47,302 bases of DNA from Candidatus Staskawiczbacteria bacterium (GTDB lineage Bacteria > Patescibacteriota > Minisyncoccia > Minisyncoccales > Staskawiczbacteraceae), in the NCBI GenBank assembly GCA_903831095.1, contig CAIKWD010000018.1:1-47302 (forward strand), given 5' to 3'. Positions 9,162 through 10,695 of this stretch are shown in pieces. The notes beneath the pieces are model-generated. The model made no database searches, had not been told where the DNA came from, and worked only from the letters and a program-made list of their open reading frames with translations. A program made the position numbers and the translations under genes. The stretch's first letter is position 1. Each line of letters opens with the position of its first letter.

Positions 9162-9530
9162 ATGCAACAAGAAAAAGGTTTCATAAAATATATTATTATA
9201 ATAGCTGTCATACTGGTTTTCGTTTTTCTGAGCCAACAGGCATATTCACGATTTTTTGGCAAAACCCTCATTTCCGATGCAACTGACCAAATTAAGGCAT
9301 ATGTGGCAAAAGGATCAAATTGGGTGGCCTCAAAAGTATATCCAAAAATAGCCGAGGAAGTTCAGAATAGGGGAGAAGTGATAAAAAATGAAGTTACAAA
9401 AGAAAAAGAAAAAGTTTCAGAAAATATTTTAAAAAAAGTTGAAAATTATTTTGCGGGAATTTCAAACAGTATTCTGCATCCCGGTGAAAATAATTGCACA
9501 GTTCAGACAACTCAGACACCAATTAAATAA
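9162..9530 (+). CDS. Small N-terminally membrane-anchored hypothetical protein
   Basis: ATG at 9162 (MQQEKGFIKYIIIIAVILVFVFLS...). The upstream TTG start in the track would read through the conserved DNA motif. Confidence 0.55.
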   Translation: MQQEKGFIKYIIIIAVILVFVFLSQQAYSRFFGKTLISDATDQIKAYVAKGSNWVASKVYPKIAEEVQNRGEVIKNEVTKEKEKVSENILKKVENYFAGISNSILHPGENNCTVQTTQTPIK

Positions 9531-9556
9531 AAAGACGATCTAAACATCGTCTTTTT
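9529..9556. repeat. 28-bp inverted-repeat site, copy 1 (AAAAAGACGAT-CTAAAC-ATCGTCTTTTT); terminator-like and dif-like
   Basis: Perfect 11-bp arms with a 6-bp spacer. It is 27/28 identical to 10668..10695 in the same orientation. Confidence 0.85.
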
Positions 9557-9579
9557 TTAACCATGTGAATAATTAGGGG

Positions 9580-9608
9580 TTGACCTGACTCAAGGGGAGC
9601 CTTATTAT
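9580..9608 (+). promoter_or_regulatory. Sigma70-type promoter of the recombinase gene
   Basis: TTGACC (9580-9585), 17 nt, TATTAT (9603-9608). The 5' UTR contains the hairpin ATGTCGC-N14-GCGACGT (9621-9648). Confidence 0.65.
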
Positions 9609-9622
9609 AGATATAGAGGCTA

Positions 9623-9633
9623 TGTCGCAAAAT
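9623..9633 (-). repeat. Near-copy TGTCGCAaAAT in the recombinase 5' UTR
   Basis: One mismatch to the 11-mer core. It forms the 5' arm of the UTR hairpin. Confidence 0.5.
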
Positions 9634-9683
9634 GTAGGTAAAGCGACGTACTATATAAGGGCTTCTTAAGGATAATCAAAAAC

Positions 9684-10655
9684 ATGCAAAATTCAAACAA
9701 ACCAATAAAAGAACATATTCAAGACTTTTTAGATTTCTGTGAAGTTGAAAAAGGTTTAAGAAAAAATACTCAGGAGAATTATAAAAACTATTTGGAGAAA
9801 TTTTTTCGCTGGCTCGACGAGACTAAAAATAGCTCTTTGCTCCCCCATCAGCTGACCTCTGACCATATTTGGACCTATAGATTATACCTTTCTAGAACTC
9901 CTAGCCCAGCTACAGGCAAATTGCTGTCCAAAGGCACCCAGAACTATTATTTAATCGCTTTAAGGGCCTTTTTAGGCTATTTTGTGGCTAAAGACGTGCT
10001 TTCATTGCCCCCAGACAAAATATCGCTCTCAAAGCCAGATAGAGGCTCAAAAAGCATCAAATTCCTTACCTTAGATCAAGTCAGCAAGCTTTTAGCTTCC
10101 ATTGACCCAAAAGATGATGGAAGCATCAGGGATAGGGCCATTTTGGAGGTCTTTTTCTCAACCGGACTTCGTATTGCCGAACTCACTGCCCTAAATCTTG
10201 AACAGTTCAATAGCCTTAAAGACAAAAAAGACATGGAACTTGGAGTTATAGGAAAAGGTGGTAAACCACGCGTTGTTTATTTTTCTGAGCGCGCATTAAA
10301 CTTTGTCCGAACATATCTAGAAATTAGAAACAAGGTTGAACATGCCAATCAAAAAGCCTTGTTTATAAACTTCCGCGATAAGAAAGATGATACAGATGCC
10401 AGACTCACGCCAAGATCTATTGAACGCATGGTAAAAAAATACGCCCTACTTTCAGGTGTGCCAATTTTCACCACGCCACATACTCTTCGACACAGTTATG
10501 CAACAGATTTATTAAACCAAGGCGTTGACCTGCGAAGCATCCAGGAATTCCTTGGCCATAGCAATATTGCCACTACCCAAATCTACACACACGTCACAAA
10601 TAAAAGATTACGTGACATCCATCATCAATTCCACAGCGACCCCGACAAAAAATAA
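9684..10655 (+). CDS. Tyrosine site-specific recombinase, XerC/XerD-like
   Basis: SAM-like N-terminal domain. Catalytic signatures [10 protein letters not shown] (Arg), HTLRHSYAT (H-x-x-R) and [14 protein letters not shown] (His..Tyr). Confidence 0.9.
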   Translation: [323 protein letters not shown]

Positions 10656-10667
10656 TTAATATCAACA

Positions 10668-10695
10668 AAAAAGACGATATAAACATCGTCTTTTT
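10668..10695. repeat. 28-bp inverted-repeat site, copy 2 (AAAAAGACGAT-ATAAAC-ATCGTCTTTTT)
   Basis: Direct repeat of 9529..9556, offset by 1139 bp. The only difference is the first spacer base. Confidence 0.85.

Follow-up and report, generated by a model that had tools for sequence, protein, structure and literature searches.

The xer gene of Candidatus Staskawiczbacteria (Patescibacteria/CPR) appears to belong to a self-contained module, formed by the recombinase gene and a probable dif site of its own and flanked by putative terminators, at the junction of the two replichores of the chromosome. We assign this reading a probability of roughly 0.8. The locus was analysed in a window of 47.3 kb (the whole stretch of DNA considered) and, in relatives, in regions of up to 10 kb on either side of xer. 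The module would consist of the xer promoter (9580-9608), a 28-bp dif-like site, whose left arm is strongly conserved and whose right arm is weaker, and xer itself (Table 1). A preliminary description of this DNA had pointed to a pair of near-identical hairpins around the gene as the Xer/dif sites. This pair is most likely ordinary, and checking it located the probable terminus, dif and Xer of a CPR/Patescibacteria lineage.

Table 1. Positions of the features discussed in the text (window coordinates)
Feature	Position	Strand	Remarks
Polar 13-mer, further left-arm copies	1355-1367, 4167-4179	-	inside + strand ORFs
Polar 13-mer TGTCGCACAATAA, innermost left copy	9123-9135	-	+ strand reads TTATTGTGCGACA
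Conserved small ORF	9126-9530	+	134 aa from TTG start; start position uncertain
Hairpin 1, AAAAAGACGAT-CTAAAC-ATCGTCTTTTT	9529-9556		perfect 11-6-11 palindrome
xer promoter-like site, TTGACC-17 nt-TATTAT	9580-9608	+	sigma-70-type
Candidate dif, ATGTCGCAAAA (9622-9632), TGTAGG (9633-9638), TAAAGCGACGT (9639-9649)	9622-9649	+	in the xer leader
xer, XerC/D-like tyrosine recombinase	9684-10655	+	323 aa; Pfam, NCBIfam and structure matches
Hairpin 2, AAAAAGACGAT-ATAAAC-ATCGTCTTTTT	10668-10695		perfect 11-6-11 palindrome
Polar 13-mer, innermost right copy	10708-10720	+	12 nt past hairpin 2
Separate terminator, AAACGCTC-loop-GAGCGTTT and T-run	10739-10758	-	ends the threonine-synthase-like gene
Threonine-synthase-like gene	10766-12082	-	convergent with xer
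Polar 13-mer, further right-arm copies	12169, 12587, 25484, 32399, 43186, 44546 (to 44558)	+	

The locus looks like the replication terminus, where the two replichores join, because gene strand, GC skew and the polarity of a 13-mer motif all flip there. The flips are seen in the window as well as in related genomes of Candidatus Staskawiczbacteria, about 30 in number. Nearly all large ORFs left of 10655 are on the plus strand, and nearly all of those right of 10766 are on the minus strand. This convergent switch, described previously, is also retained in relatives. Cumulative GC skew, suggested earlier as a check of the terminus, has its maximum at 9812, within the proposed interval of 9.5-10.7 kb and 160-190 nt from the candidate dif; here the skew turns from positive to negative. 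In three relatives (L001, L004, L005) the maximum lies less than about 200 nt from the start of xer. The same change of sign is seen across related loci: the skew is positive in the left flank of 26 out of 26 and negative in the right flank of 27 out of 27.

The position of xer after murD-ftsW-murG-gltX is constant in every relative recovered. The dif-xer unit is invariably preceded directly by the conserved small ORF, whose product has one hydrophobic segment and matched no family in a Pfam search. Its C-terminal coding region can be aligned across relatives, and its equivalents in L001-L004 are 107-122 aa long. To the right of xer, the relatives have a variable island, and the gaps between its genes often hold the polar 13-mer, which is similar to a dif arm. 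An ORF of 823 aa (35070-37544) was considered as a candidate FtsK and rejected, as it is HerA/TrwB-like; no FtsK gene was seen within the 47.3-kb window.

The recombinase contains the Pfam domain Phage_integrase (E=9e-39) and a SAM-like N-terminal domain. The catalytic R, K, HxxR, H and Y motifs are all aligned and conserved. The best NCBIfam models are XerD (TIGR02225, 230 bits, cut-off 330), XerC (TIGR02224, 222 bits, cut-off 335) and XerA (NF040815, 191.7 bits, cut-off 220), each below its equivalog cut-off. For the XerS model NF003462 the score is 125 bits (cut-off 267), and the match covers the C-terminal half only. Among solved structures, the best matches are XerD (1a0p, 1.5e-35) and then XerA (4a8e), while the match to XerH is distant (3.6e-12). 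Judging from these scores, the protein is a predicted member of the Xer-like superfamily that falls into no named equivalog. More than 100 clusters of orthologues come from Candidatus Staskawiczbacteria, with 78-93% identity. Both the TTGAC and the TAT..T block of the promoter-like site are conserved, as is the spacing between them, when 30 related upstream regions are aligned.

The candidate dif starts 13 nt past the -10 box and ends 34 nt ahead of the xer ATG. It has the organisation of a dif site, that is, 28 bp in an 11-6-11 arrangement with imperfectly inverted arms. Even with up to 3 mismatches allowed, it is a single-copy sequence in the window, and both here and in related loci it lies at the skew inflection and apparent replichore junction. 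A core of 19 nt is unchanged across 28 related loci; each of them has it exactly once, always just 5' of xer, at a distance of 44-73 nt from the ATG. Over the complete 28 nt, relatives with 80-93% identical Xer have 0-4 mismatches. The left arm and the centre are invariant, and the outer part of the right arm varies, with no compensatory change. The left arm agrees with the reverse complement of the right arm in 7 of 11 positions, including five of the six outermost ones. The four innermost arm bases (AAAA versus TAAA) lack dyad symmetry, unlike those of canonical dif.

Four loci have a divergent xer allele, with 58-60% identity, and in these the candidate dif is replaced by sites of the type AGTTCGCATAA-TTATAG-TTAAGAGAACT. 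These can still be aligned with it; the inversion match of their arms is as high as 9/11, and their left arm agrees with the XerC arm of E. coli (GGTGCGCATAA) in 9 of 11 positions. Compared with the entire E. coli dif, the native candidate has 15/28 matches, which places it in the top 0.6% of window 28-mers, and the allelic sites have 17-18/28 (top 0.01-0.08%); this likeness is suggestive, short of a proof. The site is conserved and changes together with the recombinase, as dif would, and linkage may contribute to this: the joint change could in part mean that site and gene were replaced as one tract of linked DNA, rather than that they co-evolved. In some relatives the entire dif-xer unit has been exchanged, apparently together with a homing-endonuclease gene. 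A search of viral contigs for elements similar to IMEX yielded one match to the dif core (L151), a chance match inside a coding region. From its conservation and placement, the sequence at 9622-9649 is probably dif, the site of chromosome dimer resolution.

One could instead regard 9622-9649 as a transcription factor operator or a leader RNA element regulating xer, with the real dif located elsewhere. Indeed, the promoter and the ORF flank the site, which corresponds to roughly +7 to +34 of the predicted transcript, and its inner arm bases are not symmetric; moreover, the search for dif covered the window and the xer flanks of relatives. The RNA may form an 8-bp stem with a folding energy of -10.1 kcal/mol. 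However, the z-score of this fold is only -2.15, the innermost pair is broken in 10 of 28 sequences, and there is no covariation (0.120 versus 0.125 for shuffles), and a structure in the leader RNA was rejected. The 11-6-11 geometry and the inverted outer arms also argue against this reading, as do the position at the switch of skew and polarity, the possibility of alignment with the canonical-like sites of sister alleles (TTCGCATAA-TTATAG-TTAAG) and a likeness to E. coli dif well above the background. The same placement is documented for difSL-xerS, and an operator for Xer itself would be compatible with dif. On these grounds we consider a purely regulatory site unlikely and retain 9622-9649 as the probable dif.

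The two hairpins had been located correctly as 28-bp 11-6-11 palindromes bracketing the recombinase; they are 27/28 identical and 1139 bp apart. These are the only two matches to the 28-mer in the window with up to 3 mismatches allowed, the number expected from dinucleotide-preserving shuffles being 0.00. The repeat is barely longer than the 28-mer itself (35 nt at 89%). As for the direct orientation ascribed to them, the loops do have the same orientation in both copies. However, the arms are perfect palindromes, and the orientation is set by the 6-nt loop alone. It was also correct that the hairpins enclose only the recombinase ORF with its own promoter-like site and leader.

The anatomy of both hairpins is that of terminators: a GC stem-loop and a U-tract directly after a stop codon. 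Hairpin 1 overlaps the TAA stop codon of the small ORF (9528-9530), and hairpin 2 begins 13 nt past the stop codon of xer. Both were called as terminators on both strands in a terminator scan. The RNA folds have energies of -10.9 kcal/mol (z=-6.1) for hairpin 1 and -11.6 kcal/mol (z=-6.7) for hairpin 2, each followed by a U-run, and A5/T5 tracts are situated at the outer ends. A scan of the region 8800-11200 against Rfam produced no known RNA family; sub-threshold matches to 3'-ends of sRNAs were confined to the hairpins. Two other possibilities were considered and rejected. Firstly, a dispersed family of REP-like palindromes does not agree with the copy number, which is just two in 47 kb, with no further copies in related flanks. 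Secondly, folded sites similar to integron attC were dismissed on inspection, as the hairpins have neither extrahelical bases nor R/L boxes; integron-integrase models also score far under the cut-off for the recombinase.

The hairpins were then compared across 32 distinct related loci. In most of these they are missing or have other stems, and this holds for the majority of relatives whose recombinases are 80-93% identical. The place of hairpin 2 is taken by unrelated stems (ATAACCGAC, AAAAAAGAGGG, AAAAAAGCCCC, CAAAAAGGGG, AAACACCCCCGC), and other relatives have no hairpin there. At least six different stems follow xer across relatives; a strict scan found a hairpin after xer in 10 of the 32 loci, and thus a terminator is not always detectable. 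This is the behaviour of a terminator, whose structure is kept at orthologous positions and whose stem is free to vary. Members of the hairpin 1 family are found in L011, L016 and L086 (about -150 relative to xer); the family is degenerate or inverted in many relatives and absent from others. A pattern scan of metagenomes gave more than 120 contigs that carry the same stem with arbitrary loops, mostly as a generic terminator in unrelated organisms (23-66% GC), for example directly 3' of tRNA genes.

Comparison with dif leads in the same direction. The hairpins match the dif sites of E. coli, B. subtilis and T. kodakarensis in 4-6 of 28 positions, the level of random 28-mers from the window. 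They do have two inverted arms of about 11 bp around a centre of 6-8 bp, as would any hairpin. In dif the A/T-rich parts are the inner ends of the arms, whereas here the A/T tracts are outermost; dif occurs once per chromosome, whereas here there are two copies 1139 bp apart. Since the hairpins are poorly conserved with the recombinase, have the anatomy and the position of terminators, match dif at a random level and share a generic stem, they are most likely not dif or other recombination sites, and 9622-9649 is the better candidate for this role. They are most likely ordinary bidirectional Rho-independent terminators, a putative assignment made from sequence features. A point against it is the recurrence of the hairpin family, with its loop, beside xer in several relatives and nowhere else in the related sequence covered, which is more sequence conservation than a plain terminator requires.

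The hairpins had been proposed to be duplicated, directly repeated Xer/dif core sites, so that the 1139-bp xer cassette could be excised as a circle. The facts behind this proposal are real: the 11-6-11 layout, the 27/28 identity, the shared loop orientation and the enclosure of nothing but the recombinase unit. In addition, several relatives have a member of the hairpin family, xTAAAC loop included, on one or both sides of xer, and no copy was found elsewhere in about 400 kb of related sequence. However, the absence or replacement of the hairpins next to highly similar recombinases, the generic stem, the random-level identity to known dif sites and the reversal of the dif architecture all contradict it. 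Mobility of the cassette finds no support, as xer occupies the same place in every relative recovered. An allele with a single hairpin and no xer, predicted earlier, was absent among the matches listed from the metagenome scan (at least 120 matches), and in all Staskawiczbacteria-type matches listed xer is adjacent. Finally, the supposed cassette itself contains a better candidate for dif. Taken together, these observations make an excisable cassette very improbable.

The hairpins could also form an element of the dif-xer module with a structural or protein-binding function specific to this locus, for example as a cruciform roadblock, an accessory site or a regulator's operator, and selection would keep the two copies similar. 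Such an element would account for two facts: several lineages whose Xer is 84-100% identical keep both stem and xTAAAC loop, at -150, at +990 or at both, and this family is absent elsewhere in the window and in related flanks. The hairpin arms also weakly resemble the right arm of dif (AAAAAGACG versus TAAAGCGACG, as read off the sequence). On the other hand, many relatives have neither copy or have unrelated stems, and the positions of the hairpins are exactly those of terminators. The loops are found both ways round (ATAAAC/GTTTAT, GTAAGT/ACTTAC), which fits neutral flipping of spacers in palindromes. We consider an element of this kind improbable and prefer the terminator reading.

The following mechanism can be proposed. 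The recombinase would bind both arms of dif and resolve chromosome dimers at the terminus, as in single-recombinase Xer systems. Since dif lies between the promoter and the xer ORF, the bound recombinase could also repress its own transcription. The hairpins would be two paralogous copies of one bidirectional terminator (A-tract, GACGAT stem, T-tract). Hairpin 1 would end the transcription unit gltX-GNAT-small ORF, and hairpin 2 would end xer and shield it from the convergent minus-strand genes; both would insulate the dif-xer unit from read-through on either side. Their near-identity may have arisen by duplication or gene conversion in this lineage, rather than from a requirement of the recombinase.

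The 13-mer has 12 copies versus 1.3 expected. Its copies point toward dif on both arms, become denser near dif-xer, and switch polarity between 9135 and 10708. In 32 loci, the left side has 40 copies on the minus strand and none on the plus strand, and the right side has 76 on the plus strand and 4 on the minus strand. The top strand-skewed 8-mers and 10-mers all belong to this motif (105 versus 8). Over-representation, strand skew and a polarity switch at dif are the features by which KOPS and AIMS are recognised. Motifs of this kind also switch polarity at oriC, and the FtsK gamma domain reads them to steer translocation toward dif. In nearly all relatives there is a left copy on the same strand at about -500 to -750, and in most of them a right copy 1-52 nt past the xer stop codon, with or without an intervening hairpin; in several it starts just 1-11 nt past the stop. 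The copy at 9123-9135 forms an inverted pair (I2) with 10698-10721.

The 13-mer matches the left arm, or half-site, of dif in 10 of 13 positions. In the loci of relatives no conserved second arm was found beside it, so it is only a half-site. No paired polar motifs were found in a search of viral contigs. The XerD-binding sites at which SMC is unloaded in B. subtilis are half-sites. It is possible, although doubtful, that the 13-mer, essentially a copy of the left arm of dif, signals chromosome polarity and is coupled in function to Xer/dif in Staskawiczbacteria. Xer itself could bind it, in which case it would be an XDS-like site at which SMC is unloaded or the terminus is organised; instead, a translocase could bind it as an unusually long analogue of KOPS. 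Another possibility is that it delimits gene cassettes that were inserted next to dif. If the coupling is true, this would be the first such polarity system for Patescibacteria, unusual in having a polarity motif derived from a recombination site; a functional 13-mer would be a new link between site-specific recombination and chromosome polarity.

In the searchable literature we found no description of Xer/dif for Patescibacteria/CPR. The candidate dif and the polar motif could serve as markers to check and orient CPR assemblies and to locate termini without complete genomes, and they may explain assembly breaks at this locus.

Among known systems, the hairpins resemble bidirectional Rho-independent terminators, as they follow stop codons and consist of an A-tract, a short GC-containing stem, a loop of 4-8 nt and a T-tract. 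They differ from ordinary ones in that two near-identical copies surround one gene at a distance of 1.1 kb and the family recurs at the locus. IMEX elements and pdif modules, in which genes are flanked by Xer sites, are the formal idea behind the two-site cassette. However, the hairpins here are most likely no sites for Xer, the 13-mer amounts to just a half-site, and no insertion or excision polymorphism came to light. The 13-mer shares strand skew, orientation toward dif, the flip at dif-xer and the likeness to a dif half-site with KOPS/SRS/AIMS and XerD-binding sites. Unlike KOPS and SRS, which are G-rich 7-8-mers, it measures 12-13 nt and is rich in AT around a CGC core. The passages of PMC11840125 and PMC12322038 that cite Karaboja et al. 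(2021) describe XerD-binding sites as unloading SMC in B. subtilis.

Like XerCD/dif of E. coli and B. subtilis, the locus has a 28-bp site at the replichore junction; the likeness extends to the XerC arm, shared with the allelic sites, and to XerD and XerC as the best HMM and structure matches. However, only one xer gene was seen in the window, it adjoins dif, and its product scores under the XerC and XerD equivalog cut-offs. With XerA/dif of archaea and XerH/difH of epsilon-proteobacteria it appears to share a single Xer, an 11-6-11 or similar site, and one arm stronger than the other. There, too, the site is close to the gene: difH lies near xer, and the dif of Haloferax is upstream of the xerA operon. 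The differences are the XerA score, which is under the cut-off, and the distant match to XerH.

The closest parallel is XerS/difSL of streptococci and lactococci. The streptococcal gene xerS is directly preceded by difSL and followed by a terminator, and it has been proposed to be autoregulated (Le Bourgeois et al. 2007, PMC1914069). Here, likewise, a terminus module has a dif-like site directly 5' of the recombinase ORF, probably inside the leader or promoter of that ORF; a Rho-independent terminator often comes after xer, and the surrounding gene content is variable. The comparison with xerS-difSL made in the preliminary description holds in so far as xer is linked to a dif-like site; this site, however, is 9622-9649 and not the duplicated hairpins. 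The differences are in detail: difSL is 31 bp with an 11-bp centre and XerS has about 356 aa, versus 28 bp, a 6-bp centre and 323 aa here, and difSL and the candidate dif have no sequence similarity. By analogy, the locus would work like XerS/difSL, but it is not a member of that system. It would add an independent example of a dif fused to the gene of its own recombinase, and bears on the origin and exchange of single-recombinase Xer systems, of which a dif adjoining xer is a possible hallmark (PMC5357621).

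That two 28-bp palindromes, hairpins 1 and 2, bracket the recombinase gene xer, as the preliminary description held, was confirmed to the nucleotide. Neither has a further match in the window even at three mismatches (0.00 expected by chance in dinucleotide-preserving shuffles), and the repeat has no meaningful extension past the 28-mer. The interval between them contains a promoter-like site, a leader and the 323-aa xer ORF.

Features of the xer locus and other features of the window
Feature	Position	Strand	Sequence or content	Basis or remark
ORF	603-1988		no Pfam family	
Polar 13-mer, left copies	1355, 4167, 9123	-		
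Small ORF	9126-9530		about 110-134 aa	
Hairpin 1	9529-9556		AAAAAGACGAT-CTAAAC-ATCGTCTTTTT	sequence
xer promoter-like site	9580-9608		TTGACC-17-TATTAT	between hairpins
Candidate dif	9622-9649		ATGTCGCAAAA-TGTAGG-TAAAGCGACGT	alignment of 30 upstream regions
xer	9684-10655	+	323-aa ORF	between hairpins
Hairpin 2	10668-10695		AAAAAGACGAT-ATAAAC-ATCGTCTTTTT	sequence
Polar 13-mer, right copies	10708, 12169, 12587, 25484, 32399, 43186, 44546	+		
Variable island	10766-13874			xer to uppS
PALP-domain gene	10766-12082	-	threonine-synthase-like	in the island
Promoter	12586-12614		-35-like TTGTCG	
LAGLIDADG gene	12650-13147	+		
PALP-domain gene	27832-29127	-	threonine-synthase-like	
HerA/TrwB-like ATPase gene	35070-37544	-	823 aa	

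The product of xer combines a SAM-like N-terminal domain with a Phage_integrase catalytic domain (E=9e-39). Among curated models it scores highest with XerD (230 bits), followed by XerC (222) and archaeal XerA (192), each time under the equivalog cut-off; the XerS and integron-integrase models score far lower. The best solved structures are E. coli XerD (1a0p, 1.5e-35) and Pyrococcus XerA (4a8e), and the catalytic Arg, Lys, His-x-x-Arg, His and Tyr motifs align with them and are conserved. There are more than 100 orthologue clusters at 78-93% identity, the named ones from Candidatus Staskawiczbacteria (Patescibacteria/CPR lineage). By these comparisons the protein is classified as a predicted Xer-like recombinase of the housekeeping type, not a phage integrase. 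Neither a second Xer paralogue nor an FtsK gene was found within the 47-kb window. The 823-aa ORF was considered as a candidate FtsK and rejected, as it encodes a HerA/DUF87 and TrwB-like ATPase resembling a type IV secretion coupling protein.

The hairpins had been proposed to be duplicated dif sites around an excisable recombinase cassette, and this part of the proposal is not supported. Hairpin 1 overlaps the TAA codon of the small ORF and hairpin 2 starts 13 nt past the xer stop codon. Both have the form A5-stem-loop-T5 and are called as terminators on both strands; their folding energies are -10.9 and -11.6 kcal/mol (z below -6), and U-runs follow the stems. They match the dif sites of E. 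coli, B. subtilis and T. kodakarensis at 4-6 of 28 positions, the same as random 28-mers of the window; each arm has its A/T tract on the outside, and not beside the central region as in dif. In relatives whose Xer is 80-93% identical, the stems after the xer stop codon are unrelated to that of hairpin 2 (ATAACCGAC, AAAAAAGAGGG, AAAAAAGCCCC, CAAAAAGGGG, AAACACCCCCGC, AGCTACGA); several relatives have no hairpin there, and the polar motif described below starts 1-11 nt past the stop codon. Genomes with such similar recombinases should have kept an Xer binding site; a stem whose sequence changes while its structure stays behaves as a terminator. The same stem with arbitrary loops occurs, among the matches listed, in more than 120 metagenome contigs of unrelated organisms (23-66% GC), for example directly after tRNA genes. 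We regard both hairpins as putative ordinary terminators, very unlikely to be recombination sites. As for excision, xer is adjacent in each of the Staskawiczbacteria-type matches listed, and no empty site with the hairpin pattern and without xer was seen among them.

A locus-specific role of the hairpins beyond termination would fit the recurrence, in several relatives, of a GACGAT hairpin family with an xTAAAC loop about 150 nt upstream or about 20 nt downstream of xer and, within the flanks of these relatives, nowhere else; set against the terminator-like anatomy and the turnover of the stems, such a role seems improbable. The loops occur in both orientations with the stem unchanged, ATAAAC/GTTTAT (2209-2236 of the related locus L081 versus hairpin 2) and GTAAGT/ACTTAC (loci L129 versus L086), an instance of the spacer flipping seen at perfect inverted repeats. 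We read the family as a probable old local duplication subject to decay, replacement and spacer flipping.

The large ORFs are nearly all on the plus strand to the left of xer and nearly all on the minus strand to the right. Positive GC skew prevails from approximately 3 to 9.5 kb, negative skew over the rest of the window from 10 kb, and the cumulative G-C maximum of the window, at 9812, falls in the interval of about 9.5-10.7 kb where an extremum had been anticipated. In the relatives, the skew is positive on the left flank at 26 of 26 loci and negative on the right flank at 27 of 27; in L001, L004 and L005 the cumulative maximum and the xer start lie no more than about 200 nt apart. The coding strand of xer itself has negative skew (-0.14 in the window; negative in 31 of 32 related loci) despite its plus orientation, unlike the left-arm genes on the same strand, whose skew is positive. 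This fits a skew switch at a dif just upstream, with xer on the right replichore. The first 3000 nt of the window also have negative skew though the main ORFs there are on the plus strand; this may be locally atypical or acquired DNA.

As skew and gene strand are confounded, an independent terminus signal was sought. The polar 13-mer TGTCGCACAATAA occurs in 12 copies in the window at no more than two mismatches, compared to 1.3 expected (about 10-fold). Every good copy is on the minus strand if it lies left of xer and on the plus strand if it lies right of it, with the switch between 9135 and 10708, around the xer unit. Over 32 distinct related loci, all 40 copies on the left have the expected orientation, as do 76 of 80 on the right; in total, 116 copies follow it and 4 oppose it (window and about 30 relatives, L001-L030). 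In an unbiased k-mer scan, the most strand-skewed 8- and 10-mers were all sub-words of the 13-mer, with ATTGTGCGAC found 105 times on the leading and 8 times on the lagging strand. Copies are located at about -550 and just after xer in nearly all relatives, and their density is higher near xer; 67 of the 80 right-arm copies are intergenic, many of them in the variable island. The 13-mer agrees with the left arm of the candidate dif at 10 of 13 positions (TGTCGCAcAATaa versus TGTCGCAaAATgt). Possible roles are those of a long KOPS-like guide or of an XDS-like half-site for Xer. Convergent genes, the change of skew from plus to minus and a polar motif pointing inward from both sides make this a terminus-like locus, in support of the original reading as a replication terminus.

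Alignment of 30 upstream regions revealed the candidate dif, a single block of striking conservation that lies between promoter and ATG. It is single-copy in the window. Its 19-nt core GTCGCAAAATGTAGGTAAA was found in 28 loci, with one copy in each, located 44-73 nt upstream of the xer start codon in every case. No variation is seen in the left arm and centre, while the outer right arm varies without compensatory change, and thus an RNA stem is unsupported. A leader-RNA stem at this position was rejected, with covariation of 0.120 versus 0.125 for shuffles and a fold z of only -2.15. Four loci have a divergent xer allele (58-60% identity), and in these a different but alignable site occupies the same position, e.g. 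AGTTCGCATAA-TTATAG-TTAAGAGAACT, whose left arm shares 9 of 11 positions with the E. coli XerC arm, GGTGCGCATAA. The native site matches E. coli dif at 15 of 28 positions (top 0.6% of window 28-mers), and the allelic sites at 17-18 of 28 (top 0.01-0.08%). In its arms the native site lacks dyad symmetry at the four innermost bases, a weak point for a dif. The site is nevertheless probably dif, as suggested by its geometry, uniqueness and conservation, by its change along with the xer allele, and by its location where skew and polarity switch. The idea of an Xer-dif module is supported, with the probable site in the leader of xer.

Three loci of relatives, L058 (1680-3240), L081 (538-2260) and L027 (2797-4480), contain a complete xer of the divergent type (58-60% identity), accompanied by a dif that is likewise divergent. 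Downstream come, in order, an inserted gene, what remains of the native xer 3' end, and the usual hairpin and polar motif. The inserted gene of L058 is a LAGLIDADG ORF overlapping the xer stop codon. This looks like homing-endonuclease-associated replacement of the dif-xer module. LAGLIDADG genes also recur beside or near xer in many relatives, as in the window and just downstream in loci L009, L012, L025, L028 and L030. A variant polar motif, TGTCGCACAATTG, often lies ahead of them, and in the window this variant also contributes the -35-like box of a promoter.

The genomic context was compared in 21-kb stretches of large contigs (five loci) and in species-representative genomes (25 loci). 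The genes preceding xer are the same throughout: murD-ftsW-murG-gltX and a small conserved ORF, all on the strand of xer. Rightward of xer, the coding strand is reversed and gene content depends on the genome: a threonine-synthase-like gene, pyrimidine-dimer glycosylase, LAGLIDADG gene and GNAT in the window; Mrr, methyltransferase, an OLD/UvrD pair and Fic among relatives. Beyond this stretch, conserved genes such as uppS, pyrG and rplI resume. The constant left neighbours and differing right genes make xer a fixed core gene at a conserved convergence point beside a variable island.

Gene content differs in every genome across the island, which extends from xer to uppS (11000-16000 in L001-L005) and constitutes a hotspot of gene flux beside the apparent terminus. 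The version in the window comprises the threonine-synthase-like PALP gene, the Pyr_excise glycosylase, the LAGLIDADG gene and GNAT; that in L002/L003, Mrr, an N6/N4 methyltransferase, a UvrD and OLD-family ATPase pair resembling Gabija, and Fic. The PALP gene beside xer has a paralogue 16 kb away on the same strand. On the other side, the small ORF encodes one hydrophobic segment, has no Pfam family and is always immediately upstream of dif-xer in relatives; it is possibly a functional partner or a mere syntenic neighbour. Assemblies break inside xer, suggesting population heterogeneity at the locus: L066 (contig Ga0265297_10000022, 693,815 bp) appears to start within the gene, and in L028/L029 (CAZMKW01) the xer of one MAG is split over two contig ends.

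The promoter, candidate dif and xer form a unit at a conserved, replichore-junction-like position between terminator-like hairpins. A single Xer would bind the strong left and the weaker right arm of the site and resolve chromosome dimers there. The site covers about +7 to +34 of the predicted transcript, so Xer bound there may also repress xer. The hairpins would stop read-through from the gltX-side operon into dif-xer, end the xer transcript and block antisense transcription from the convergent genes. We assign a probability of about 0.8 to this overall explanation, terminators around a terminus dif-xer module.

No report of Xer/dif, the hairpin motif or the 13-mer in CPR bacteria was found in the literature searched. 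The locus is classified with the known single-module Xer/dif systems. Its closest match in function is difSL-xerS of streptococci, where dif directly precedes the recombinase ORF, the ORF is followed by a terminator, the surroundings are variable, and autoregulation by Xer binding was proposed (PMC1914069). However, it is not a member of that family, as it fits neither the XerS model nor the 31-bp site geometry. It also resembles XerH/difH and archaeal XerA/dif (PMC5357621; PMC11840125), although the recombinase does not reach the XerA, XerC or XerD equivalog cut-offs; XerS and XerH bind one strong and one weaker arm (PMC5357621).
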